NCBI GenBank assembly: GCA_018716065.1 | Contig: DVKJ01000017.1 | Location: forward strand, 2,031 to 66,030 | Direction of reading: 5' to 3' | Origin: Candidatus Pelethosoma merdigallinarum | GTDB lineage: Bacteria > Bacillota_I > Bacilli_A > RF39 > UBA660 | Length of the DNA: 64,000 nucleotides | Shown: one piece after another, positions 49,152-64,000 of the stretch | Layout: the number at the start of each line of letters is the position of its first letter | Numbering within the stretch: the first letter of the stretch is position 1 | The notes under the pieces: generated by a model | Database searches by the model: none | What the model was told of the DNA's origin: nothing | The model's input: only the letters and a program-made list of their open reading frames with translations | Position numbers and translations under genes: made by a program

Positions 49152-50044
49152 GTTTTGAATCGCCAAACATGACATAGAACTAAAACTGACTCTAAAAACT
49201 GTACACTATTAGCTAAGTTTTAATACCATCAAAGATGACATAGAACTAAAACTTGTTGTACAAAACATCTCTCATTTATTTCGTTTTAATACCATCAAAG
49301 ATGACATAGAACTAAAACCTGCATTATTTTCTAATTTCTTTTTTTCTTGTTTTAATACCATCAAAGATGACATAGAACTAAAACTCAGTTAATAGTAACG
49401 TTTCAGTTTCATAAGTTTTAATACCATCAAAGATGACATAGAACTAAAACTGCGTTTTAATTTTTTATCTGCTATAATTGGTTTTAATACCATCAAAGAT
49501 GACATAGAACTAAAACTTACAACTAGGTTTTCTTTTAAGCAAATTAGTTTTAATACCATCAAAGATGACATAGAACTAAAACAGCAAGGTATTTTAGAAC
49601 TAATTAGATGTGGTTTTAATACCATCAAAGATGACATAGAACTAAAACTATAAGATAATCTATTAATTAAATCATAGTGTTTTAATACCATCAAAGATGA
49701 CATAGAACTAAAACATCTAACGTTGCAAATGGTATATAGTTAATGTTTTAATACCATCAAAGATGACATAGAACTAAAACTTATTTCTTCTTTATACCCA
49801 AGAATTTTATGTTTTAATACCATCAAAGATGACATAGAACTAAAACATTTCTAACATATTTTTCCACCCTTTCTTTGTTTTAATACCATCAAAGATGACA
49901 TAGAACTAAAACGATAACATTAAGTGTTTTATTTGGAAATGTGTTTTAATACCATCAAAGATGACATAGAACTAAAACATGCTTTACTACAAGCACCTAT
50001 CCCACCGAGTTTTAATACCATCAAAGATGACATAGAACTAAAAC
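49152..50044 (-). CRISPR. Type II-A CRISPR array: 14 repeats (36 bp; the repeat at 49152..49186 is degenerate, 35 bp) and 13 spacers, all 30 bp
   Basis: Plus-strand repeat gttttaataccatcaaagatgacatagaactaaaac at 49217, 49283, 49349, 49415, 49481, 49547, 49613, 49679, 49745, 49811, 49877, 49943, 50009; transcribed strand (minus) reads GTTTTAGTTCTATGTCATCTTTGATGGTATTAAAAC; leader side is next to csn2 (50045..50121); degenerate repeat is at the distal end. Confidence 0.95.
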
Positions 50045-50121: not shown

Positions 50122-50802
50122 TTATTCTAACATAAATTCATCTAAATCTGAATCAATTATTAACTTTTTCTCAAATTCTAATTTTGTACCATAAGATTGA
50201 GAATCAATTAATAGAACATCAACTTGGTTATAAATACTATATTTATAAAACTCTAATAATTCTTCTCTTGTTAGATATTGTTTTAAATTGACAAAAACTA
50301 ATAAATTATTTGTTTTCAAAACTTTCTCTAAATCGATTAATAATAAGAGATTATCTAATAAATCATTCTTCATTACAATATTTAATTTCATCAATTTTGT
50401 TAAGTTTTCAATATCAATATCTGGATTAATAGATAATGGCAAATCTATTTCATTCAATATTTTCTTGTAAATATTACCAATTTTAGTATATTGTTTTATT
50501 AATTGTTCTCTATGTTCTTCATCCAATTCAGATTCTATATATCTTGATATTTCATTGATTACTTTTTTTGAACCCAGTTGAAAATCAAAATAATCAATAA
50601 ATATTTTTAATTTATTAGAATAATTAAGCTCATGATTTTGTTCATCTAAAAATATAATTTCATCTGATATATTTTTTTGAAAGATATTATATAATCCTAA
50701 TACAATTCTGTAAAAATATTTTTTGTTTTCTATTTCTAACACAGAAACAGATTCTTTGGAAAATTCGATTTCATGATCCAAATAATTAATCTTAATTTTC
50801 AT
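50122..50802 (-). CDS. csn2: Csn2 (type II-A-specific adaptation protein)
   Basis: ~220 aa short-form Csn2 directly downstream of cas2 and upstream of the array. Confidence 0.85.
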   Translation of the reverse strand: MKIKINYLDHEIEFSKESVSVLEIENKKYFYRIVLGLYNIFQKNISDEIIFLDEQNHELNYSNKLKIFIDYFDFQLGSKKVINEISRYIESELDEEHREQLIKQYTKIGNIYKKILNEIDLPLSINPDIDIENLTKLMKLNIVMKNDLLDNLLLLIDLEKVLKTNNLLVFVNLKQYLTREELLEFYKYSIYNQVDVLLIDSQSYGTKLEFEKKLIIDSDLDEFMLE

Positions 50803-51125
50803 AATACAATTAATTTGTCCTCCGTATCGATGATTTTATTTTGTGTTTCACCGATTATATATTCAATTTGGGAATACTGTTTCTCTGTAATTGTCATAAC
50901 TTGAATAATTCCTTTTTTAGGTGCATTTTTTCTAATTCGATTTATTAACAATCCTGATTGCTGTGAATTTAAAGCTATCTTAGAATATACAGATTCTTGC
51001 ATCATGATAAATCCTTCATTAATTAAATATTTTCTAAACTTTATATAATTTTTCTTATCCCTCAAATAAACATTAGGTAAATCAAAAAATACCATAGTTC
51101 TCATTACTCTATCCCTCATAAACAA
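50799..51125 (-). CDS. cas2: Cas2 endoribonuclease (adaptation)
   Basis: MVFFDLP...FRKYLINEGFIMMQESVYSK matches type II Cas2; overlaps cas1. Confidence 0.9.
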   Translation of the reverse strand: MFMRDRVMRTMVFFDLPNVYLRDKKNYIKFRKYLINEGFIMMQESVYSKIALNSQQSGLLINRIRKNAPKKGIIQVMTITEKQYSQIEYIIGETQNKIIDTEDKLIVL

Positions 51126-51978
51126 ATCCTTTATATTTTTCTATGTCTTTCATTGCATCTAACGTATTTTTTACATACATTTTAATAATATCTTTTAATA
51201 CATATTTTTTTCCTAAATAAGTATAATTGCCATTAAAAATATTGACAATATCTAATTTATATTCGGTATTAAATATTCTTCCTTGATTATAATATACAAA
51301 TCGATCAATTAAAATTCGAAACGGTTCCATTAAATCACAAGTTAAATTAAACGGATTAAATTCGTTTTTATGGTGAATTCCAATTTGAGTTAAATATCCA
51401 TTACTAACAATTTCTTTATTAATAGTAGATAGCAAAACCGCATACCCATAATTTAAAGCTGCATTAATATCATTGTTTTCATTTCTTGAAAATTTTTTAC
51501 CAAATAATTCATTAAAATATACTTTAGCAGCATGTCCTTCACGATTGGTCTTATCACCAATTGTAACTTCTGTAATATAACTTATAATTAATTCATATTT
51601 TGATGATTTTATCTCTTTTAATAAACTTGCTTGATTAATTATTTTATTTTCAACGATTTTAAACCATAACTCATCTTTAATAGATTTTTTCCATTCAAAT
51701 TGCTCACGAATTTTCTTACTCGTGTTATGCCGTGAATAAAAGGAGGATAGTTCTCCAAAAGGATTATGTTTTTCATCACAAAAAATAATATTTATCTTAT
51801 AGTCAGATAGTTCCTTTAAAAGATACGCAGAAATAGATACAGAAATTGAATCTACAATTATTGTATCTATTTCTGACAAATGAATATACTTTTCATCATT
51901 ATCTTGTTTTACTACTAAAAATCTATTCTTATAACTAATTTTTGATTGTCTAGTGATTACAACTGTCCTAAAACTCAT
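51109..51978 (-). CDS. cas1: Cas1 integrase (adaptation)
   Basis: N-terminus RTVVITRQSKISYKNRFLVV typical of type II Cas1; 289 aa; overlaps cas9 end. Confidence 0.9.
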   Translation of the reverse strand: MSFRTVVITRQSKISYKNRFLVVKQDNDEKYIHLSEIDTIIVDSISVSISAYLLKELSDYKINIIFCDEKHNPFGELSSFYSRHNTSKKIREQFEWKKSIKDELWFKIVENKIINQASLLKEIKSSKYELIISYITEVTIGDKTNREGHAAKVYFNELFGKKFSRNENNDINAALNYGYAVLLSTINKEIVSNGYLTQIGIHHKNEFNPFNLTCDLMEPFRILIDRFVYYNQGRIFNTEYKLDIVNIFNGNYTYLGKKYVLKDIIKMYVKNTLDAMKDIEKYKGFVYEG

Positions 51979-54900
51979 ATTGCCTTTCCTTTATCCCTGT
52001 AACTGACTTATTAATAACAATTCCTTGAATAACTATTCTTCCATTTTTTTTACCAAATGCAGAAGAATAGGATTTATCTAAAAATTTAAAATTTGCATTC
52101 TCACTGTTACAATTTAACAGTTTAGTTAATTCCTTTATTATTTGTTCTTTTTTCTCAGTCGAATTAACATCTAGATCATCATATTGACTCATTCTTTTTA
52201 AATCACTTACTAAATTTTGATACAATACATACTCTGTTGAAATTTTTTCGATGATATATCGTATGATTTTATTTAGGCTTTCATTATATTCTCGCTCATC
52301 AAGTTTTTGTTTTGGACGATGAAATAACTGGTGTAAAGCATATTTATACTTTATATAAAATGGCTTATCATAATGGAATTCTTTTGCATTACAAACTTCA
52401 ACAGTATCTGAGGCACCCACTAAATAACAAATCTGATTATCCCATTTCAAATATGAATAAAATGGAAGTGGTTTACTAATAATTTCACAATCATCATCTT
52501 TATTTATTTTTAAAAGACTTTTTAAATATTGATACAATTGTTCTTTCGGCTGATTAACATAATAAATAGGAACTCCAACTAGGCGTTTATTTTCTTTACC
52601 TCGTTTTTTAAACATAACCATTACCGCATAAGCTGGTTTAATACTAGTATATGATCCATATAAGGATGATGGCATATTTCCCTTCAATGCCAAACCTTTC
52701 AAACCTTTTTTCTGCTTTGTTTGATTATAGAACATTCCAGTTCTAACTTCTGTTTTTTTACTAACTAAAATATCATTTCGATATAATGTATTTTCGATTT
52801 TTTGATTAAATTTATGAGCATCAAATAATATTTCTCCTGACTCATCATCTACCAAATTTTTCGATATATCATTTACAATATCGCTTGCTTCTTCGTCTAA
52901 ACTATTAATCACATAACCATATTTTAATTTTTTGAATTGATTTAATTCTTTAAATCGATCATTCATTTCCTTAACCATTTGAAAATTAATATCCTTTTTC
53001 ATATATTTTTCTTTATACTCACCTAGTACAGCAGCCAAATAGGCATCATGTGCGTGATGATAATCATTAATTTCACGGAATTTAAATAAATCGTATCTTT
53101 CACGATAATTATGTGATAAATTAGCTTTTAAATATACTACCTTTGTCTTTTTATAATAATTGTTTAATATATTTGCAACATGTTTTGTTATTTGTCTTGT
53201 TTCAACTAATTGACGATTAATAAACCCTTGAATATCTTCGTCACTATAATTTCTTCTACTTAAATTGTGAAATTTTTTTGCAGAGATTAATCCTAATTTT
53301 TTTAATCTTGCCCACCATCTCTTATTTGCTTCATTTCTATATTCTAAAGGTAAAACATAACTAGCAGCTTTCTTTTGATTACACTCTCTATACACCAATG
53401 CTTTATTATCAATAGAATCGTCTTTGATTAAAGTTCTAGGAATAATATGATCAATTTCATAAGAATCAAGATCTTCAATATTTAGTGATCTACCAGAATA
53501 TAAACACTTTCCTTCTTGAATAAAGTATAAAAATAATTTTTGAGTATTAATTTCGTGGTCTTTCAACTCATCTCTCAATGTTTTATAATTTTCAATTTCT
53601 GTTTTACAATTATCATATATTTTTTCCAAATATTTTTTTCGATCGTCTTTTCTTTGCTTTTTTTCTTCCCCTCTTGCCATTTCAATCATAATACGAACTG
53701 GTTCATATCCCATATATTCTACGATCTCTTTAACAATTTTTAAAGCTTGATAAATTCCTCGTTTAGTTGCAGGAGAAGTGGCCAAAGGTTCAACAACTTG
53801 ATAGTTTAACGTGTTTATACTTTTCTTACTATTTTTTTCTTGAATCATTTTTTGAAATTGATACTTATCATTATTAATGATCTGCATGAAGTTTTCATCA
53901 GTCTCATTCATTAAATCCATGATTGATTTAGATATATTTGTTTCTTTGTCTTTATAATATTTAGTAGATAATAATTCTTTCGATAAACTTCCCCATCCAG
54001 AATATTTTTTTGATAAGATCTTTTTAATTTGTTGATCAGATAAATCCGGAAATTCTCGTCTTAATTTATGTTCTAAAATATCTTTATCATCAAATATGGT
54101 AATCCATTCAATAATCTTATCAGCTTGTTCTTCATTATATTTTGTGTTTTCAAATATACCATCTGGTCCAAAAAAATCATAATAAGACTGTAAATTATTG
54201 GCAAACTTATTATCACTAGAATATCCTCTAATGTTAAATTCACCATTGTACATATCCATTTCGTGCCAACTGTTCAAAAATTCTAAAAATTTAATTTGTG
54301 TAATTGTTCCTTTTGTTTTTTCAAATAATTCTTTGATAATATATTGTTGTTGTTCATTTGATAGTTTTTGGTCATTCACTCTTATTTGTTTTAATTCATT
54401 CAAAACTTTATATCTTGAATAATAAATAGAATTGTTAGGAAGTGCATATTCATCTAATAAATAAGTACAATGAGAAATCATCCTTTTAATGAATTTTTCA
54501 GCAGTTTTTTCCTTATCAATAACTTCATCAAAATTATATGGTGTAATTTTCACATTATCAACTTTTCGTTCCATCCATGCAAATGAACTTTTTGTATCAG
54601 AAACTAATGGTCCAACATAGTATGGAATTTTAAATTCTAATAATTTTACAATTTTATAACTTTCATCCTTTGTTTTATCTAGTAAAAATGGATAATACTT
54701 ACCTTGATTTTCTATAATCTTTATTAATTCATCTTTATTTAATTGATAAGGAAATTTTCCATTTTCGGCATCCGTAATTCTAGGTAGAAAATCACCATTT
54801 TCAATTCTCTTTTTTACATCTTCAGTAAATAACTCAAAATATTTTTGATCTTTTTCTTCGGATTGATCAATTAATAAACTAATTAATTTTATTAATTCTT

Positions 54901-56005
54901 TTGAAAATTCTTCTTGTGTCATATGATTAGAAATATAATTATCATATAAACATTCTTCTTTTCCGTTAGTTTTTAATAACTTTTTACGTAATTTTTTATT
55001 TGGTCGGAAAATTTCTTTTAATAATTTCAAATCTTTTTGGTGTTGATCATATCTTGAAACCATAAGACCGGAAAGACTAACATGATCACTCCCGTTAAAT
55101 AATCTTTTTAGAAATACAGTATCATATAAATTTTTTAATTCTTGTAACGCCTCTACCTTATCCCCTAGAAGTTGTTCAATATCTGCATATTTATCATCAA
55201 AATCATTCCCATTAAAATAAATTTCTACTTTTGTTTCTGGATTTTCTATCATAAATAATTTTGCAACATTAAACTTATTTCCAACTAGAGCTTTTGATAG
55301 TTCAGCAATGAATTTTTTATCACATAGGTCAGATAATAATTCCTTAATTCCAACCTTAATATCATTTTTTGATGGGTTTAATAATATCTTTGCAAATTGA
55401 TTAAAATCAATTATATCTTTATAATTATCTGGTATTTCTAATAAAGAAATATGATTTTGAAATGAATCAAATACTTGATATAAATTTTCTGTTAAATTTA
55501 AATTATTAACGTTAAATGATGAATTACCATACAAAAAGTTACCACGATACTTTATCATATGATGAATTGCCAAATATACTAAACGAATATCTTCTTTACT
55601 TGGATCATTGATTAATCTATTTCGTAAATGATAAATTGTTGGATATTTTTCATAATAATTCTTGATTTGTTCTCTTTCACCATTAGTTAATTTTATTGTT
55701 TTATTTTTATTATCTTTTTCATGATACTTTGATTCTTGCATCTTCGTAAAAAATGTAGTGTCTACTTTATTTATTTCACTTAAAAATTCATTTTGTAATA
55801 GTTTAATACGATTTCTACGACGATCATATCTTCTTCTCGTGCTTCGATAATTTCTTCGTTCTTCAGCAGTACGTGCTTCTTCAAACAAACGAACACCCCA
55901 TAATGCCTTATTTCCTTTTCTTATAATATTTTGTGTTCCATCCTCAACAACAGCCCATCCAACGGATGTTGTACCAATATCTAATCCGATATTATATTTT
56001 TTCAT
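51968..56005 (-). CDS. cas9: Cas9 (type II-A), 1345 aa
   Basis: RuvC-I IGLDIGTTSVGWAVV with catalytic Asp; HNH motif YEIDHIIPRTLIKDDSIDNKAL; size and gene order cas9-cas1-cas2-csn2. Confidence 0.95.
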   Translation of the reverse strand: MKKYNIGLDIGTTSVGWAVVEDGTQNIIRKGNKALWGVRLFEEARTAEERRNYRSTRRRYDRRRNRIKLLQNEFLSEINKVDTTFFTKMQESKYHEKDNKNKTIKLTNGEREQIKNYYEKYPTIYHLRNRLINDPSKEDIRLVYLAIHHMIKYRGNFLYGNSSFNVNNLNLTENLYQVFDSFQNHISLLEIPDNYKDIIDFNQFAKILLNPSKNDIKVGIKELLSDLCDKKFIAELSKALVGNKFNVAKLFMIENPETKVEIYFNGNDFDDKYADIEQLLGDKVEALQELKNLYDTVFLKRLFNGSDHVSLSGLMVSRYDQHQKDLKLLKEIFRPNKKLRKKLLKTNGKEECLYDNYISNHMTQEEFSKELIKLISLLIDQSEEKDQKYFELFTEDVKKRIENGDFLPRITDAENGKFPYQLNKDELIKIIENQGKYYPFLLDKTKDESYKIVKLLEFKIPYYVGPLVSDTKSSFAWMERKVDNVKITPYNFDEVIDKEKTAEKFIKRMISHCTYLLDEYALPNNSIYYSRYKVLNELKQIRVNDQKLSNEQQQYIIKELFEKTKGTITQIKFLEFLNSWHEMDMYNGEFNIRGYSSDNKFANNLQSYYDFFGPDGIFENTKYNEEQADKIIEWITIFDDKDILEHKLRREFPDLSDQQIKKILSKKYSGWGSLSKELLSTKYYKDKETNISKSIMDLMNETDENFMQIINNDKYQFQKMIQEKNSKKSINTLNYQVVEPLATSPATKRGIYQALKIVKEIVEYMGYEPVRIMIEMARGEEKKQRKDDRKKYLEKIYDNCKTEIENYKTLRDELKDHEINTQKLFLYFIQEGKCLYSGRSLNIEDLDSYEIDHIIPRTLIKDDSIDNKALVYRECNQKKAASYVLPLEYRNEANKRWWARLKKLGLISAKKFHNLSRRNYSDEDIQGFINRQLVETRQITKHVANILNNYYKKTKVVYLKANLSHNYRERYDLFKFREINDYHHAHDAYLAAVLGEYKEKYMKKDINFQMVKEMNDRFKELNQFKKLKYGYVINSLDEEASDIVNDISKNLVDDESGEILFDAHKFNQKIENTLYRNDILVSKKTEVRTGMFYNQTKQKKGLKGLALKGNMPSSLYGSYTSIKPAYAVMVMFKKRGKENKRLVGVPIYYVNQPKEQLYQYLKSLLKINKDDDCEIISKPLPFYSYLKWDNQICYLVGASDTVEVCNAKEFHYDKPFYIKYKYALHQLFHRPKQKLDEREYNESLNKIIRYIIEKISTEYVLYQNLVSDLKRMSQYDDLDVNSTEKKEQIIKELTKLLNCNSENANFKFLDKSYSSAFGKKNGRIVIQGIVINKSVTGIKERQYEF

Positions 56006-56556: not shown

Positions 56557-57120
56557 TTAGTCTAACTCTTCTAATTTGACTTCTTTTAAAACTTGAATTG
56601 GATATTTTAACAAATATTCATTTAATACTGGCCTACCATATGGATCCTCTCCATCCTCCCAATATATTTTTGCCATTGCTGCAATATTATAATGCATAGA
56701 ACCACTTATTAAACTCATATTATGTTTTTCAAAATAATCTGATTTCACTTCGTATATCTTGTAAAATGTATCAGATAAATTATTATCATTTATAAATTTT
56801 TTAACGCCTTCACTATCAAACGCATAAAAAGCTTGGTATCGTGATAGTTTTTCTTTGTAATTTAATAATCTTTCATACTCAAATATTATATCCATAACAT
56901 TACTTAATGGCATGACATTATTATTAAACAAATGATTATTTAATAAATATTGAATACCATGATGTGAAAGTCCATCATTATAATATGGCATTACCATATT
57001 TAAAAGTTTAGTGTTATTTTTATTTCCAAGAGAAATATTTTTTTGTAAATCAAGTGTTTGACCCACATTTATAGTTCCACTTCTATCTATGTGATATAAT
57101 TTCATTCTTATCACCTTCAA
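56557..57120 (-). CDS. Hypothetical protein; 3'-terminal partner overlapping the DUF2075 nuclease/helicase gene
   Basis: Overlaps upstream gene by 38 nt (translational coupling); no recognised motif. Confidence 0.4.
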   Translation of the reverse strand: MKVIRMKLYHIDRSGTINVGQTLDLQKNISLGNKNNTKLLNMVMPYYNDGLSHHGIQYLLNNHLFNNNVMPLSNVMDIIFEYERLLNYKEKLSRYQAFYAFDSEGVKKFINDNNLSDTFYKIYEVKSDYFEKHNMSLISGSMHYNIAAMAKIYWEDGEDPYGRPVLNEYLLKYPIQVLKEVKLEELD

Positions 57121-58984
57121 CTTTTCTTTTAAAATAATGTTGTAGCTTTTTGTCTATGCAATATATATAGCAGCCTTTCATTCCTCTTGTCATTAATGTC
57201 CTATATGTATTTTTTATTATTTTGTCTGCTATTTGATTTGCTACTTCTTGACCTTGTTCTTTGGCAATTTTATTGATTCCTTTTAATGATTGATCTGTTT
57301 TTGCTCTTTTTGTATAATCTGTAATAATTTTTCCATTTTCATATCTAATATCCTCACCTATTATTACTCCTACATAGTCAAATTCTAACCCTTGACATGT
57401 GTGGATACATCCCACTTCATTTACAGACATAGGATCAATTGCCCATGTTTGTGAATTTCCTAAATTCCAACTCATTTCAAAATTGTATTCTGGGATTACT
57501 ATATCATGAACATTAGAGTCATTTTTACCACTACTAATCCAATTCCAACAATATCCAGCAACTAATCTTGACTTATTATTTATTTTATTTTTTTCTTCTA
57601 TTAATTTTCTTAACTCATTAGGATTATCTACTACTCTAAAATCATAGTCAAAGTCCATACCATCGAAGTTTGCAGTTTTTCTTATATCTAAAACATTGTC
57701 TAACCAAGCAAGATATCCATCGGATCCATTACATCTAAATTGACTTTCTAACTCCACAATTTTTATTCCTGCATTTAATTCTTTAGCATATTTCTTTATT
57801 TCATCTACTGAGCCAATATCTTTTAGTGTAACTTTTTGATCTTCATCAATAAAGAATATTGAAAAATTGGAAGCATTGATAATCTCTTTAATTTGATTTT
57901 CTCCTAAGTTTTGGAACATTCCAGATTTTGCATTTAATCTATGTGCTTCATCTACAATCAAACAATCAACTTCATTGCTCTCGGCTTCTGTGAACTGTCC
58001 TGATCCTTGAAATAAATTATTAATATATGTCATTTTAAATGAGCCTTTTAATTTATCTCTAAAGACTGCCCTTGGTGCTGCATTCTTAGTTACATAGAAA
58101 CAAGTCATATTTCTGTTAGTAAGTTCAACCAATAAATTAATTGCTAAAACTGATTTTCCGGTACCTGGTCCTCCTTGTACGACCAATACATTTTTATCAT
58201 TTGCTGATAAAGTATCTATTGCCATTCTAATAGCATCTTCATAGATTACTTTCTGCTCATCAATCATGTTAAACTCTTTATTGCCTTGTAACATTTTAGT
58301 AAGTGAGTCTTGTAGTCTTTTGGATGGCCTGATTTTTCCATTTTCAATTTTATATAAAGTTTCCCTATCATCACCCTCAAGAATATATCTTTTTATAAAA
58401 CTTCTTAGTTTCATAAAATCATTAGACCCAAACATTGGAGCTTCTTTTATGTATTCTTGATATTGACTACTGCAAATTGGATCATCTTCATTTAATACAT
58501 AGTTATGTAGAAAAGCACAAGGGTGTAAACCTATATCTTCTAGCTGCACTGTTTCATTAAAGTCTTTAATTAAATTAGCATAGCTCATAGCTTGATATGA
58601 CGGATGTGTAACTTCTCTTATTGCATGCCCAGTAAAAGTAGAAACAATTCCGTCTTTTCCTTCTACTGCGTCACATTTTTCCCATTGCTTTAGTTCTATA
58701 ATAATAACAGAATCTTTTTTATTTCTATCTCTACCAGATAGAATAAAGTCTATTCTTTTAGAAGTCGTTGGAATATTAAATTCAATAGCTACTCCTGCAT
58801 TGTCTGGTATTTCATTGTCATCTAATACACCTCGCATATATTGCATAGAATTTTTCCACGAGTTTAATTGAGAATCACTTGTTCTTCCAAAATATTTTTG
58901 ATATTTTTCATAAATTTTATTTACAATGAGATTTAAGTTGACATCATTAATAAAACCTGATTTTATTCCTTCATACACTAACAT
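57083..58984 (-). CDS. DUF2075/Schlafen-type SF1 helicase-like ATPase with N-terminal PD-(D/E)xK-like nuclease domain (candidate defence nuclease-helicase)
   Basis: N-terminal RIDFIL...IIIELKQW (D...ExK); Walker A VVQGGPGTGKS; Walker B CLIVDEAHRL; C-terminal TLMTRGMKGCYIY typical of DUF2075 proteins. Confidence 0.6.
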   Translation of the reverse strand: MLVYEGIKSGFINDVNLNLIVNKIYEKYQKYFGRTSDSQLNSWKNSMQYMRGVLDDNEIPDNAGVAIEFNIPTTSKRIDFILSGRDRNKKDSVIIIELKQWEKCDAVEGKDGIVSTFTGHAIREVTHPSYQAMSYANLIKDFNETVQLEDIGLHPCAFLHNYVLNEDDPICSSQYQEYIKEAPMFGSNDFMKLRSFIKRYILEGDDRETLYKIENGKIRPSKRLQDSLTKMLQGNKEFNMIDEQKVIYEDAIRMAIDTLSANDKNVLVVQGGPGTGKSVLAINLLVELTNRNMTCFYVTKNAAPRAVFRDKLKGSFKMTYINNLFQGSGQFTEAESNEVDCLIVDEAHRLNAKSGMFQNLGENQIKEIINASNFSIFFIDEDQKVTLKDIGSVDEIKKYAKELNAGIKIVELESQFRCNGSDGYLAWLDNVLDIRKTANFDGMDFDYDFRVVDNPNELRKLIEEKNKINNKSRLVAGYCWNWISSGKNDSNVHDIVIPEYNFEMSWNLGNSQTWAIDPMSVNEVGCIHTCQGLEFDYVGVIIGEDIRYENGKIITDYTKRAKTDQSLKGINKIAKEQGQEVANQIADKIIKNTYRTLMTRGMKGCYIYCIDKKLQHYFKRKVEGDKNEIISHR

Positions 58985-59012
58985 TTTGCATACTCCTTAC
59001 TATATTAAAAAC

Positions 59013-59330
59013 TTATTTTAACTTTGTATATTTTGTACTTACTCCTTTAGCTTTTTCTATTGGATATTTTTTTGCTGTAATTTTCATTTTATCCAAAACA
59101 ATTTTCTCAGGATCTACTCCTAATTTATCTGCCAGCAATAATGCATAGTTAATTACATCTGCAAGTTCTGATTTTACTTCTTCAATATCATAATTAGAAT
59201 TCCATTGAAAACATTCCAATAATTCTCCTGCTTCTATTGATATTGATTTTGCCAAATTCTCAGGACTATGAAATTGATCCCAGTCACGTTCTTCATTAAA
59301 CTCTTTAATTTTTTTTGTTAACTCTTGCAT
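59013..59330 (-). CDS. MazG-like nucleoside triphosphate pyrophosphohydrolase (all-alpha NTP-PPase)
   Basis: ~105 aa with SIEAGELLECFQW (EAGEL-type metal-binding helix) and ELADVINYALLLA. Confidence 0.6.
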   Translation of the reverse strand: MQELTKKIKEFNEERDWDQFHSPENLAKSISIEAGELLECFQWNSNYDIEEVKSELADVINYALLLADKLGVDPEKIVLDKMKITAKKYPIEKAKGVSTKYTKLK

Positions 59331-59340
59331 AGTAACCCTC

Positions 59341-60186
59341 CTAAAATAACTCTTTTACAATCAAATCTTCTGAGTGTAGATTATTATTTTTACCCAATAA
59401 TAAATTCTCATAAAATTTAATTAAATAACTTTTGTCTTCTTTGATATTTAAATAATTATTAAAATAATTACTTCTTACTAAAGCATTTCTAAAATACACT
59501 GATTTATCCTTAAATAACGAATTATCTACGTTATACCCTAAACTAATTAAATATTTTTCTATAAATACTGCTGTTGTTCTAGTATTACCTTCTCTAAAAG
59601 GATGTACTTGCCATATACTGGAAGAAAAGTTAGTAATATTTTTTATAACTTCTACAACAGTCATATCTTTATAGCTTTTATCTTTTTCTAAGCTAATATC
59701 ATATTCTAGTGACTCGGTTAATGTTTTAGAGTCTCCATATGCAACTGTATCATTATTTAATATTTTTTCATGTTTCGAAAAATCTATTTTTCTAAACTCT
59801 CCTGCAAATTCATAAACATCTTGAAATAAATATTTATGAATATATTTTAGATAATTTACTGATAATTCAAAATTATCTTGATCTAATAATTCAACTATTC
59901 TCATAGATACAAAGTCACATTCTAATTCCTTATGATTAATATCTTTTTGTTTTTCTTTTGTAGTGTAATATTCTCTTAAACTTTGCTCTACTTCTTTAAT
60001 TGTTAATTCACCTAAAATATTTTTTTCACTCATCTGTTCAAGATATTTAGATGGTTTTAAGTTATCTACCTGTTGTAATCCTATCGCCATATCCCATTGT
60101 AACTGTTTTATATAACCTTTAGGTTTTTGTTCTTCTTGATATGGATTCATACTAGAATCTAAATCTTTTTCACTCATGAAAATCAC
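59341..60186 (-). CDS. Fic/Doc-family protein (putative AMPylase/phosphotransferase) with variant active-site motif
   Basis: HPFREGNTRTTAVF corresponds to Fic motif HPFx[DE]GNGRxxR with Gly-to-Thr substitution; 10-nt gap to downstream MazG gene. Confidence 0.7.
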   Translation of the reverse strand: MIFMSEKDLDSSMNPYQEEQKPKGYIKQLQWDMAIGLQQVDNLKPSKYLEQMSEKNILGELTIKEVEQSLREYYTTKEKQKDINHKELECDFVSMRIVELLDQDNFELSVNYLKYIHKYLFQDVYEFAGEFRKIDFSKHEKILNNDTVAYGDSKTLTESLEYDISLEKDKSYKDMTVVEVIKNITNFSSSIWQVHPFREGNTRTTAVFIEKYLISLGYNVDNSLFKDKSVYFRNALVRSNYFNNYLNIKEDKSYLIKFYENLLLGKNNNLHSEDLIVKELF

Positions 60187-60425
60187 CTACATATATTCAT
60201 TAACATTATATCATATCTATAAACATATCTCATCCTATTAAACTTTATCTACAAAAATAATTTCTATGATAAACTCGAATTCAACAATAAAAGTATAAAA
60301 TAATTCTTTTCAAATACAATACACTAACAAAAATATATGTTTTTTACTTATAGAGAACGAAAGTTAAAACAAATCAAAAATGTGTAAATTTCCATTACAC
60401 ACTTTTACCTATTCTCTTACAAATA

Positions 60426-61331
60426 TTACTGATCCATATATTCTTTCAGTTTCATAAAAACTGGAAGATTCCCTTTATAACTCTTAGGTGATATAGGGCT
60501 AGGATGGTATATTGGTAATACTTTAAAACCATCAACCTCATAAAGTTTTCCCACTACATCACCAAATTTATTAAATTTAAAGTCCAATAAATTTCTTGTT
60601 GGAAATTTTCCAAGAGTAATAACCAACTTAGGGTTTAAAATTTTTAATTGTTCTAACATAATATCCTTACAATTTTTTGAACATGTTTTCAAACTCTTTC
60701 TTTCTAGAGGGTAACATTTTACAGATTCTAAAAAAGTAGTATCAAAGATATTTCTATCAATAATATCAAATAATCTTTGTAATATAACACCACTTGGTAA
60801 TACCTTTCCATTGACATCACACCACAATTTATGACTCTTTCTCCATCCATTATTGGCAGGAGCTTCTCCCACTAAGACAATATCATGATTCTTTCCTAAA
60901 TATACTGTAGCATCATTCGGAAATTTTTCCACTAATTTTCCACAGCTTTTACAACCATGTACTCTTTCATCAACCTTTGTGAGTAATTTCTTAATAAGCC
61001 TTTTCTTTAATGACTCATATCGTTGTTTTGTATTTTCTGTTAATATTAAATCTCGATTCATTATTTCATAATCTGTATAATCAATCTCACTATCAAATTG
61101 ACTAGCAGTTAAATCAACAACTTGATCATTCAAGATATTAAAATAATGACTCACTCCATTCACATGAATCTTACCAATTTTACCGCCAAAATAATCTTGA
61201 ACAATAAGTGCGGTAATCCCACTCATTCCAAAACACTTATTACTTTCCGTCCAATCCTCACTTACATTAGGAACACACAACTCTTTTGTGTAACACTCCA
61301 ATAACGCTTTCTGTATAGTTTTAATATCCAC
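60426..61331 (-). CDS. Fusion protein: unknown N-terminal domain (~125 aa) plus uracil-DNA glycosylase-superfamily domain (family 4/5-like with Fe-S cysteines)
   Basis: CKSCGK (CxxC) ~25 aa before VLVGEAPANNGW (motif A, GEAPA); YHPSPISPKS (motif B, HPSP); further Cys residues (CYPLERKSLKTCSKNC) consistent with a 4Fe-4S UDG. Confidence 0.55.
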   Translation of the reverse strand: MDIKTIQKALLECYTKELCVPNVSEDWTESNKCFGMSGITALIVQDYFGGKIGKIHVNGVSHYFNILNDQVVDLTASQFDSEIDYTDYEIMNRDLILTENTKQRYESLKKRLIKKLLTKVDERVHGCKSCGKLVEKFPNDATVYLGKNHDIVLVGEAPANNGWRKSHKLWCDVNGKVLPSGVILQRLFDIIDRNIFDTTFLESVKCYPLERKSLKTCSKNCKDIMLEQLKILNPKLVITLGKFPTRNLLDFKFNKFGDVVGKLYEVDGFKVLPIYHPSPISPKSYKGNLPVFMKLKEYMDQ

Positions 61332-61371
61332 TTATACCACCTCACTTCTATTATCTTCTACTACAATTATT

Positions 61372-62154
61372 TTATTTACTTACTTTTGAAGAGCTAATTT
61401 TTAACTCTAAAAACTTTTTATGTCGCTTAGAAATTCCACTCATCTTTTTAATCTTATATTCCGTATCATTAGTTCTGTGCATAGGTCTTAATAAATCTTT
61501 TCTCACAGAAATATATCCATTTGATAAATAATAGTTAAAAGTTACAAATACACCGTTTCGTTCTAAAAGATATTGAATGACCGTTAAAGTCTTTCCAAAA
61601 TTTCTAGTTAATACTTTAAATGAATCAGTAAAAAATCCTTTACTCTCTGTTGCAACGGCAATCTCAAGCATTTGACATAAGTGCTCATTAAATGTGGCCG
61701 TCATTCCATCCTCTAACACAGTTTGCTTATCACTTGTAAATTTAGACATGTGTTGGGGAGTTATGGAAATAAAATGATTTTTATCCACAGGAATTGCATC
61801 AAAATATAATTCTGATGATTTTAAGTTTGCCGTTTTACACACAACTTCCCACGCTAAAGGATATTTTTTGATCGCTTTTAAATAATAATTGTCTATGTTT
61901 TTTTCTTTTAAGTTATTACTTACTTCTTCAAAATTAAGCTTCTTAAAATACTTAATTGCAAAAGAAGTTATAGTTTTAATTTCTTCTTCCTTCAATTGAT
62001 GTTCAAAACCTACTTGTTTATAATTACTAGAACTTACACTTTCTATTAAACTATTACGAATGGTTGTTACAACAAATGATTTAATATCGATGTTCGCATC
62101 TGGCAAATAAAATCGAGCTTCTTCTTTGGCAAACAATAAAATACCCTTTCTCAT
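61372..62154 (-). CDS. Hypothetical protein, probably co-transcribed with the UDG-fusion gene
   Basis: 40-nt gap to downstream gene; no recognised domain. Confidence 0.4.
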   Translation of the reverse strand: MRKGILLFAKEEARFYLPDANIDIKSFVVTTIRNSLIESVSSSNYKQVGFEHQLKEEEIKTITSFAIKYFKKLNFEEVSNNLKEKNIDNYYLKAIKKYPLAWEVVCKTANLKSSELYFDAIPVDKNHFISITPQHMSKFTSDKQTVLEDGMTATFNEHLCQMLEIAVATESKGFFTDSFKVLTRNFGKTLTVIQYLLERNGVFVTFNYYLSNGYISVRKDLLRPMHRTNDTEYKIKKMSGISKRHKKFLELKISSSKVSK

Positions 62155-63129
62155 CTCTCTATCATTCTAAACTTGAAGTAAAGAGTTCATACGCATTTCA
62201 ATATCACTCAATATTCTTTGGTATTCTAAGATATTATTCTTTACCAATTGATTTTTTAAATAATTCAAATAATTATCTACCATATATTCTTCTTTCATAC
62301 CATCACTTCCTGAACTAAATCTATTTGTATTATACCATATTGAAGTACAACAAAAAAGAACACTAAATAGTATTCCTTATGTATAAGCTAAATGGACTAA
62401 GATAAGGGATTCATTTACAATCTTTCTAGTTATTTTTTAATTTTTAAAATCTTGAAAAATCAAGTTTTTTTTTACTTTATTAATTTGTTTAAAATTTTAT
62501 AAATTCAAAATATTTGTACCTGATTTGTACCTAAAAAGCTAGCCGAGTTAGTCAATAATCAAATACAATAATCGATCACTACTAATATATCATTTTATTA
62601 GAAAATTACAATAAAAAACTGTTGGCTTGTACATCGCACTATATCACAATACCTTATAATGAAAAGAAAGAAAACATGAAAATTTCCGTAAAAATTGGAA
62701 AAATAAAAAAACTTACATTTTCTAATTTTAAGAAAACGTAAGATCAAAAAAACTCGTCGAAGTTAGAGCTAAACTCCTTCTTCATTGATTATCTTAATAC
62801 AAAAAAATTTCGTTGTCAATATGGTAAAATTTATAGCTGAAAAATATCAAAAAAGTATTACAGATTTACATTTTTTCAATGCTTTGTAATTTATTAATAT
62901 TAAATAACATGATAGATAAAAAATTTATTCCATCTTCTACACGTTTTTTATTGTTTTCAATTGAATTATGCTATATCTGACAGCTTCTCCGTGAGTACCA
63001 TCGCTTAGTATATGATACAATTCTAAAATATTATTAATATCATTATCTATAAATTCCTCTGCATTTTTTATATCTATCCCTTTTTTTACAGAAAATATTT
63101 TATTTTTGATTTTCTTGTAGCATTTCCTC

Positions 63130-63400
63130 TGTCAATTTAATCGCATTCTAATCATTATGATTAATATCTTTTTGTTGTTCTTTTGTGGAGTAATATTTTC
63201 TAAAACTTTATTCTACTTCTTTGATTAGTAATTCACCCAAAATATTTTTTACTAATCTGTTCAAGATATTTAGATGGCCTTAAATTTTCTACCTGTTGTA
63301 ACCCAATAGCCATATCTCATTGTAACTGTTTTATATAACCTTTAGTTTTTTGTTCTTCTTGATATGGATTCATAATAGAATCCATATCTTTTTCACTCAT
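63130..63400 (-). pseudogene. Degraded duplicate of the 5' portion of the Fic gene (59341..60186)
   Basis: 63153..63400 aligns with 59932..60177 at ~85% identity with indels that break the frame (e.g. ttatgattaatatctttttgtt...gatatggattcataatagaatccatatctttttcactcat). Confidence 0.6.
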
Positions 63401-63527
63401 ATAACTTTACCTAACATTTCTATATCGTTGAATCATATTATCCATATTTTCTATAATTATTATTTTTATTGCTTTATCTTTCGCTCAAGTCTTTTTTATT
63501 TATAAATGATGGTAATTCAATATTATC

Positions 63528-63752: not shown

Positions 63753-64000
63753 TTACACAAGTTCTATATTCTTTTCATTTACATATAACAATAAGGCTTT
63801 TTCCCAAGAATTATAGTATAAAGCGGGTATTTTTTCTTCACTTTTATATCTAGGGTCTTGCGATACAACTAGTTCAAGAAACTTATTAAATTCTTCATAA
63901 ATTCTTTTATCTATGCATAATCCATTACCAAACCCCATATATACAAACTTATATTTACCATCATAGTCTTCTTTAGCATAATTTTTCCACGCTTCTTTCC
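63753..64000 (-). CDS. Partial CDS (C-terminal part; open frame continues upstream beyond window end), hypothetical
   Basis: Frame stays open from 63938 through 64000 on minus strand (...KEAWKNYAKEDYDGKYKFVYMGFGNGLC...). Confidence 0.3.
   Translation of the reverse strand, partial: KEAWKNYAKEDYDGKYKFVYMGFGNGLCIDKRIYEEFNKFLELVVSQDPRYKSEEKIPALYYNSWEKALLLYVNEKNIELV

Follow-up and report, generated by a model that had tools for sequence, protein, structure and literature searches.

Does a DNA glycosylase gene that lies among CRISPR-Cas and other antiviral genes take part in defence, or does it only stand next to it? The question is raised by a gene at 60426-61331 (minus strand) in a 64,000-nt stretch of contig DVKJ01000017.1 from Candidatus Pelethosoma merdigallinarum (GenBank assembly GCA_018716065.1, positions 2,031 to 66,030; this whole stretch is hereafter called the window). 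The gene starts with GTG and encodes a 301-aa protein in which Pfam recognizes an N-terminal YunG domain and a C-terminal uracil-DNA glycosylase (UDG) domain. A sequence-only reading of the window had described a UDG fusion that forms a two-gene unit with a 260-aa unknown protein and, from its place in a defence island, acts in a restriction-like manner on modified or uracil-containing invading DNA. Here we describe a family-4-like glycosylase domain in which the uracil-reading pocket is predicted to be replaced; nothing in the evidence collected here makes the fusion itself a defence gene.

The glycosylase domain and its base pocket

The UDG domain covers residues 117-301 (60426-60983; this and all residue and motif positions below are on the minus strand) and was found by Pfam, by a PDB sequence search, and by Foldseek. 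The Pfam UDG model (PF03167) matches residues 147-284 with an expect (E) value of 2.5e-13 and 50.7 bits against a cut-off of 24.3. The PDB sequence matches were family-4 UDGs only (4zbx, 1ui0, 1l9g, and 1vk2), with an E value of 5e-8 for the single sequence and 1e-13 for a profile of 68 sequences. This family alignment consists of 68 fusions, no two of them more than 90% identical and each 40-74% identical to the window protein. An AlphaFold2 (AF2) model of the full-length fusion (predicted local distance difference test score, pLDDT, 95; predicted template modelling score, pTM, 0.91) has one long helix, residues 99-126, that joins the YunG and UDG domains. When this model was used in Foldseek, family-4 UDGs came first (E 1e-9, target-normalised template modelling (TM) score 0.67-0.71), among them 1ui1, 1l9g, and 4zby at E 1e-9 and probability 1.00, and UdgX, TDG, and the family-5 UDGb were lower in the list. 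A UDG fold in structure prediction had been set beforehand as a test of the glycosylase assignment, and the fold is present in both the AF2 model and the Foldseek matches.

The hallmarks on which the family 4/5 assignment had been based could all be located. Four cysteines, Cys127 (60951-60953), Cys130 (60942-60944), Cys206 (60714-60716), and Cys221 (60669-60671), align with the [4Fe-4S] ligands of 4zbx, 1ui0, and 1l9g; the first two form the CxxC pair noticed earlier. C127, C130, and C221 are each retained in 56 of the 68 fusions and C206 in 67. Motif A (G155-W163, 60843-60869) begins 25 residues past C130 at G155 (VLVGEAPANNGW) and reads GEAPA(N/R)(N/T)GW in this family, which deviates from the family-4 pattern GE(A/G)PG. 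Motif B (H276-P279, 60495-60506) is part of the YHPSPISPKS stretch at residues 275-284; its H276-P-S-P is invariant and coincides in the alignments with HPS of 1ui0 and 4zbx. Invariant residues in the 68 fusions are G155, E156, P158, G162, W163, W170, E202, H276, P277, S278, and P279. The NCBIfam family-4 models score far under their cut-offs (47.6 versus 125.3 for TIGR00758 and 52.5 versus 250 for NF040953), and the UdgX model TIGR03914 reaches 18.6 against a cut-off of 189.95. These results show that the C-terminal 185 residues make up a predicted UDG-fold enzyme of the [4Fe-4S], family-4-like type with its putative catalytic scaffold kept.

One clade of fusions (P0297-P0308, for example L020 6001-6975) has lost C127, C130, C217, and C221 together and keeps C206 and the catalytic motifs. 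It represents a natural cluster-free version of an Fe-S (iron-sulfur) glycosylase.

The base pocket was compared with that of the Thermus thermophilus (Tth) family-4 enzyme UDGa, in which Asn80 makes bidentate hydrogen bonds to N3 and O4 of uracil, Glu47 excludes thymine, Phe54 stacks on the base, and His155 stabilises the leaving group; k2/Km drops more than 40-fold in N80A and about 100-fold in E47A (PMC5387724). The mapping was anchored on the cluster cysteine of V-K-C-(R/Y)-P, four residues downstream of E202. In three ungapped alignments (1ui0, 4zbx, and TM0511) Glu202 (60726-60728) falls on Asn80 of the Tth enzyme and Asn82 of the Sulfolobus tokodaii enzyme. Trp170 falls on the stacking Phe (Tth Phe54) in the Sulfolobus alignments, Gly162, which is followed by the inserted Trp163, on Glu47, and His276 on Tth His155. 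The replacements in the uracil pocket (Asn80→Glu202, Phe54→Trp170, and Glu47→Gly162 plus Trp163) are all invariant in the subfamily. As read from these alignments, the predicted catalytic scaffold is kept and the uracil-specific contacts are lost. Because three uracil-pocket residues are replaced by other invariant ones, we infer that the substrate is a base other than uracil, most simply one with a cytosine-like Watson-Crick face. It is known that the N204D variant of human UNG gains cytosine excision.

A glutamate at this position is also found in the anti-phage glycosylase Brig1, where Glu147 takes the place of the usual Asn (N82 in the Sulfolobus UDG) and both E147A and E147Q abolish immunity (PMC11078745). 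Homology to Brig1 was considered and ruled out: hhalign gave a probability of 0.1% when the 68-sequence fusion profile was compared with the Brig1 sequence from the supplement of that paper. Since there is no detectable sequence similarity, the likeness between Glu202 and the Brig1 glutamate is probably mechanistic and convergent, not ancestral. The earlier proposal of a UDG acting on modified bases thus holds in so far as the domain does not look like a plain uracil enzyme, given the change of Asn to an invariant Glu as in Brig1.

The YunG domain and the distribution of the fusion

The N-terminal domain (residues 1-116, 60984-61331), which the sequence-only reading left unrecognised, is the Pfam family YunG (PF24585). 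The match runs over residues 3-116 and model positions 2-115 of 116 with an E value of 1e-30 and 106.5 bits against a gathering score of 27. Signature columns and the order of secondary structure elements were taken from the model of the window protein and the family alignments. The signature consists of a Cys, a His, and an Asp, of which Asp is invariant and Cys and His are nearly invariant in YunG alignments; Asn65, Thr75, Gln78, Phe79, Arg104, and Tyr105 are among the other conserved positions. In the window protein this signature is incomplete: His62 (61146-61148) and Asp73 (61113-61115) are kept, and the Cys found in nearly all relatives is replaced by Ser37 (61221-61223). Across 232 fusions the nucleophile column 37 holds Cys in 225, Ser in 6, and Gly in 1. 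The Cys that had been called conserved is C33, a column that varies among Cys, Ser, and Thr; the truly conserved column is position 37. In an AF2 model of the YunG domain alone (pLDDT 97.8), position 37 is at the N-terminus of helix 37-48, His62 is on strand 60-67, and Asp73 is just past strand 70-72. YunG is therefore modelled as a small alpha/beta module with a Cys-His-Asp signature. This order is typical of papain- or transglutaminase-like enzymes, to which YunG may be related; in an hhalign comparison with one transglutaminase-like protein the Cys, His, and Asp are in register, with a probability of only 3.8%. The structure comparison suggested for both domains was informative for the UDG part, which retrieved family-4 UDGs, and not for the N-terminal domain: Foldseek with the YunG model gave no significant PDB or viral match. 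The best structural match in BFVD was weak (E 0.09, TM 0.5-0.58). No paper was found in a search of the literature for the YunG family.

A search with YunG alone in 1.84 billion representative proteins (50% identity clusters) gave 1231 matches, and those listed are mainly free-standing proteins of ~110-200 aa. Partner domains in 63 longer YunG proteins include NUDIX, HD, GNAT, UDG, HAD, Ada_Zn_binding, and nucleoside deoxyribosyltransferase. Weak matches to PF24591 ("Phage YunG-like protein") were seen in 8 of 58 free-standing YunG proteins, the best with an E value of 0.0016, and because of these matches phage-encoded relatives of YunG may exist.

The fusion itself is widespread. The first search returned 1194 homologues, with both domains present in all of the 120 best, and a second search, started from a member of 42% identity, gave 275 further matches, of which the listed ones have the YunG-UDG architecture. 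The YunG-UDG architecture is stable: at a length of ~300 aa it can be traced down to 40% identity. More than 1,000 sequence clusters make up the subfamily, with gut and other metagenomes as the main source; the few named records are from metagenome-assembled genomes (MAGs) of uncultured Firmicutes or Bacilli, plus one Acidobacteria MAG. The architecture is already visible in Pfam annotations, and relatives carry the JGI label "uracil-DNA glycosylase family 4"; we found no description of the subfamily and its pocket substitutions. Members of this UDG subfamily that lack YunG are encoded at no fewer than eight loci (L058, L064, L071, L075, L078, L086, L091, and L094; 189-215 aa, 62-79% identity), with no clear YunG remnant upstream. 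At L003 (3426-4973) a 515-aa protein has a different N-terminal region of ~270 aa and a C-terminal extension around the UDG domain; this alternative N-terminal domain had no match in the PDB. Because the UDG subfamily occurs without YunG or with another N-terminus, YunG is best seen as an accessory domain.

In the lineage of the window the two domains have fared differently. Between the window and L012 the ratio of nonsynonymous to synonymous substitution rates (dN/dS) was 0.117 in the UDG part against 0.42 in the YunG part, both from small counts. Within the clade of 83-98% identity several conserved YunG positions have changed (C37S, G35E or G35V, H62Y, and F64V), and P0009, the L012 protein, has a 32-residue in-frame deletion in YunG that takes out the nucleophile helix. 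The glycosylase part appears to be maintained, and the YunG chemistry appears relaxed or lost in this lineage.

Genomic setting of the fusion and its relatives

The context survey covered 100 loci, which represent 61 distinct contexts. The fusion gene of the window lies between a 308-codon gene (61372-62298, minus strand) and a Fic-domain gene (59341-60186, minus strand). A segment made of PDDEXK_4, Macro, a small ORF, a Fic fragment, the 308-codon gene, YunG-UDG, and Fic is 94-95% identical in the window and L106; in L106 its neighbours are cotJB/cotJC and two NUDIX genes at one end, and a helix-turn-helix gene, a 556-aa ORF, and type I HsdR at the opposite end. The shorter block 59343-62412 (308-codon gene, UDG, and Fic) is 93% identical to L012; its flanks differ, and the L012 block has cotJB and a serine recombinase on one side and a methyltransferase on the other. 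cotJB or cotJC is found 1.3-5.7 kb from the gene in L063, L002/L046, L044, L034, L071, and L012, whose proteins are 51-83% identical, and no more than 6 kb away in L106/L107, the loci of 95% identity. The defence cargo near these cotJ-linked relatives varies, with Lamassu and Cas9 in the window, type I restriction-modification in L106, a methyltransferase in L012, and ApeA in L002. From the conserved cotJ synteny and the changing defence cargo it is inferred that the fusion belongs to a vertically inherited backbone beside cotJ, around which defence systems were swapped, and not to the exchanged cargo.

Other clades have other neighbours. In the P0082 clade (73% identity; P0082 occurs on 134 contigs) a Y-family polymerase of the dinB type is always directly upstream and G5, YlmH, and MatE genes are downstream, a housekeeping context. 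The fusion of L016 is next to a LigD primase-polymerase, that of L020 has Tag, NUDIX, His_Phos, and NADAR as neighbours, that of L024 has NUDIX, dCMP-deaminase-type, DHH, and AP_endonuc_2, and in another clade ASCH, HIT, NUDIX, and RhuM genes are beside the fusion. A defence setting was found in the window, L012, L106, L002, and L022, and was not found in L004, L016, L020, and L024. No neighbour family occurs in more than 5 of the 61 contexts. Among 150 immediate neighbours the commonest Pfam is NUDIX (9/150), followed by GNAT families (4), and PADLOC matches are scattered (mad2 3, PDC-S07 3, PDC-S04 2, and a single type I methyltransferase, RhuM, and others). A tight linkage to NUDIX genes was considered and dropped after near and far ORFs were compared; only a loose, regional association was kept. 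A search of 50,697 phage records, 72,556 plasmid records, and IMG/VR contigs yielded no fusion, and neither PADLOC (database version 2023) nor PHROGs gave a match for it.

That the window holds a defence island is well supported. A type II-A system comprises cas9 (51968-56005, minus strand, 1345 aa), cas1, cas2, and csn2 (50122-51978), and a CRISPR array (49217-50044) in which a 36-nt repeat (GTTTTAATACCATCAAAGATGACATAGAACTAAAAC) occurs ~12.5 times; Rfam found no family at gathering score in the whole window, tracrRNA-type models included. The Fic gene next to the fusion matches Pfam Fic and the PADLOC candidate PDC-S72 (E 5.8e-84). A Lamassu pair, LmuA (E 4e-73) and LmuB (E 7e-168), is located at L008 308-3041, ~5-8 kb past window position 64000, and after Lamassu come a PDDEXK_4 gene (PDC-S26-like) and then a Macro-domain gene, also beyond the window end. 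The G+C content of the last 16 kb of the window is 23-28%. The step from this location to a defence function was not borne out, given the cotJ synteny kept at 51-95% identity with changing cargo, the dinB clade, the lack of any recurrent neighbour, and the absence from the phage, plasmid, and IMG/VR collections. It had also been proposed that orthologues found consistently with repair or replication genes, and never in variable islands, would speak against defence; some relatives do lie in variable islands, and the defence reading is weakened only.

A Schlafen-group-3/DUF2075-type (SLFN) helicase gene (57083-58984, minus strand; PF09848, E 3e-108, with weaker AbiO and Nhi matches in PADLOC) and a MazG-like pyrophosphatase gene (59013-59330, minus strand; PF12643, E 3.7e-20) precede the Fic gene in window coordinates. 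The 105-aa MazG-like gene and the helicase gene (57083-59330) recur as a pair in an unrelated context (L109 5177-7398) and may form a small module for defence; in the window the helicase gene is followed by a DUF2441 ORF, with an overlap of 38 nt between the two. An intrinsic terminator was considered for the gap between UDG and Fic and dropped, since the gap has only a weak 6-bp hairpin followed by a T-run (~60375-60400), which is absent from the output of the terminator scan. Upstream of the 308-codon gene lies the degraded 5' fragment of a second Fic gene (63109-63403, minus strand) with stops and a frameshift. It has 89% nucleotide identity to 59915-60177 (minus strand), and in tblastn with Fic it aligned with aa 3-105, split over two frames and broken by stops; L106 has the fragment too. 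Because of its position upstream of the pair, the 308-codon gene and the UDG fusion are bracketed by direct Fic repeats.

The supposed partner of the fusion turned out to be part of a larger, interrupted gene. The two co-oriented ORFs are as reported, at 60426-61331 (minus strand, 301 aa) and, 40 bp upstream, at 61372-62154 (minus strand, 260 aa). The 260-aa ORF is the 3' part of the 308-codon gene, which is interrupted at codon 44 by a TGG→TAG change (62167-62169); a 43-aa ORF (62167-62298, minus strand) precedes the stop, and the 260-aa ORF starts at the ATG of codon 49. Intact relatives, including P0121 (308 aa, 92% identity), have Trp at codon 44. An independent AGA→TGA change at codon 47 of the same gene is present in L012 (7166-7168). 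Codon 49 is ATG in the window and L012, and Thr or Val in the intact P0121 and P0124. Two independent nonsense mutations three codons apart suggest repeated selection for loss of the first 48 residues, or repeated inactivation. An alternative genetic code was considered for the in-frame TAG and rejected, in view of long ORFs under table 11 (such as the 1345-aa Cas9), the TGA stop in L012, and the TGG of P0121.

The family of the 308-aa protein is small (24 matches), and the protein has no match in Pfam, PADLOC, or NCBIfam; a PHROG tail-fibre match of P0121 (E 2e-5) was judged to be due to chance. The family adjoins YunG-UDG in the window clade and in L016 (54% identity), occurs without the fusion in Paenibacillus, L018, and L109, and neighbours the fusion in 2 of 61 distinct contexts. 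It is a loosely linked neighbour, not an obligate partner, and the two-gene unit is not supported, with one member nonsense-mutated here and its link to the fusion so rare. P0141 (273 aa) is a chimera that combines a type I HsdR C-terminal domain (PF12008) with ~120 residues from the 308-aa family, which points to recombination between 308-family and hsdR genes in another island.

Readings of the fusion and comparison with known systems

As a description the sequence-only reading was sound in its ORFs, its motifs, the UDG fold, and the island, and at fault in the unknown N-terminal domain, the conserved Cys, and the extent of the 260-aa gene; of its interpretation, the UDG fold, the Fe-S cysteines, the island location, and the idea of something other than a plain uracil enzyme are supported, and the two-gene unit and the inference from location are not.

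We give an even chance to the reading that the fusion is a monofunctional Fe-S glycosylase resident in its host and from a distinct family-4-like subfamily, and that it removes a base other than uracil and feeds base-excision repair. The UDG domain would flip out such a base, excise it hydrolytically, and leave an abasic site; the most likely target would be a pyrimidine whose Watson-Crick face resembles that of cytosine, or else some other base that is modified or damaged. Usually the fusion would serve genome maintenance, as the product of a vertically inherited chromosomal gene that may sit by chance beside a cotJ-linked hotspot of defence insertion and exchange. Several points weigh against this reading. 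Defence or candidate-defence neighbours are found in the window, L012, L106, L002 (ApeA/PDC-S58), and L022 (RhuM/PDC-S05). The 100 loci fall into 61 contexts, a high variability of neighbourhood that would suit an accessory gene as well, and the link to NUDIX genes is loose (9 of 183 ORFs in the nearest two genes versus 5 of 263 beyond the third gene, p = 0.10). The substrate would be deduced from three pocket positions placed by alignment alone, and a Glu at the Asn position is the very feature shown to be required in the anti-phage Brig1 (PMC11078745).

The last point leads to an anti-phage glycosylase, which would excise a modified phage base (e.g., a 5-substituted cytosine) and flood the invading DNA with abasic sites like Brig1, Brig2, and Brig3, while YunG may strip or recognise the decoration. 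The place of the gene in the window, with Lamassu, PDDEXK_4, and Macro on one side and Fic (PDC-S72), the SLFN helicase, and Cas9 on the other, agrees with such a role, as do defence-candidate neighbours in other lineages and variable neighbourhoods; Gly162 in place of the Glu on the C5 side may widen the pocket, and the Brig3-BapA operon is a precedent for a hydrolase paired with a glycosylase. We consider this role rather unlikely, since the protein has neither sequence similarity to Brig1 nor a PADLOC match, cotJ synteny is kept while defence cargo changes, a widespread clade lies beside dinB in unchanging housekeeping surroundings, no single neighbour family is shared by more than 5 of the 61 contexts, none was found in the phage, plasmid, and viral-contig collections, and purifying selection on the UDG part is strong (dN/dS 0.12). 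A bolder and improbable proposal would make YunG-UDG an undescribed UDG family with a Glu/Trp/Trp pocket for a cytosine-type or hypermodified base, with YunG acting on the same substrate or product, either by stripping the decoration (done in trans by BapA for Brig3) or by capturing the abasic site. The fusion would then be a single-polypeptide, restriction-like anti-phage defence, and the Ser37 copy of the window would be a derived one in which the YunG chemistry was dropped.

The names given to the relatives by JGI, the best PDB and NCBIfam matches, which are family-4 UDGs, and the conserved motif B His and Fe-S ligands would instead suit an ordinary family-4 uracil-DNA glycosylase, the main or back-up UDG of its host, with YunG as a neutral or regulatory add-on. 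This is decidedly improbable with scores far under the family-4 cut-offs and with the counterparts of Asn80, Glu47, and Phe54 all replaced by other invariant residues, when changes at the first two are so costly in the Tth enzyme (N80A and E47A above). Very doubtful, finally, is a coupled two-step enzyme in which the YunG Cys-His-Asp removes an amide- or ester-linked group before excision, or traps the abasic-site aldehyde like UdgX or HMCES. The fusion is stable over wide divergence, its pTM of 0.91 suggests a fixed two-domain arrangement, the three YunG residues are nearly invariant, and they are in register with those of a transglutaminase-like protein, though at the low probability given above. 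Against this coupling, the UDG subfamily does without YunG at 62-79% identity and has a different N-terminal domain in L003, the window protein has Ser for Cys and its relatives G35E, G35V, H62Y, or the helix deletion, the YunG fold has no significant structural match, and YunG proteins are mainly free-standing or fused to unrelated enzymes. Selection on the neighbours was estimated from the window-L012 comparison as well, with dN/dS values of 0.32 (308-codon gene) and 0.114 (Fic), again from small counts.

Classes and substrates of UDG-fold enzymes are predicted from a few pocket residues, and this subfamily changes three of them together. Should the substrate prove to be a modified cytosine or a phage base, the UDG fold would have been recruited to defence a fourth independent time; should it prove to be a lesion, the present label "uracil-DNA glycosylase family 4" would be wrong and would hide an additional repair activity. 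Either outcome would provide a first functional handle on the YunG domain, whose recurring partners (NUDIX, HD, HAD, deoxyribosyltransferase, and UDG) are nucleotide-processing domains. The locus also shows that a position beside CRISPR or Lamassu is weak evidence when taken alone, because the fusion probably belongs to the conserved backbone of the hotspot and not to its exchanged cargo.

Among known systems the family-4 UDGs (Tth 1UI0, Sulfolobus tokodaii 4ZBX/4ZBY, and Thermotoga TM0511) are closest. They share with the fusion the fold, the four aligned cluster cysteines, the G-E-A-P start of motif A, and H-P-S of motif B with the leaving-group His. They differ in being only ~22-25% identical, in the Ala that ends motif A of the fusion (GEAPA), in the NCBIfam scores, in Glu for the uracil-reading Asn, Trp for Phe, and Gly plus an inserted Trp for Glu, in the N-terminal YunG domain, and in the clade without cluster cysteines. 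The ...APA ending of motif A recalls family 5 (UDGb), whose motif A is GLAPA; unlike UDGb, the fusion keeps the motif A Glu. Brig1, the anti-phage alpha-glucosyl-hydroxymethylcytosine glycosylase, is alike in its UDG fold, in having a Sulfolobus family-4 UDG as its closest solved structure, in Glu for Asn, and in a defence-island setting, which for the fusion applies in this window, its relatives being mainly outside such islands; Brig1 has a GLNPG motif, no cluster cysteines, and no YunG. Like UDGb, UdgX is an Fe-S relative with a UDG fold, and the KRRIH R-loop and GEQPG motif that mark it (PMC10359453) are absent in the fusion. The YunG family itself (PF24585, with Bacillus subtilis YunG) is matched over the full length of its model, from which the window protein departs by the fused UDG domain and by Ser in place of Cys.

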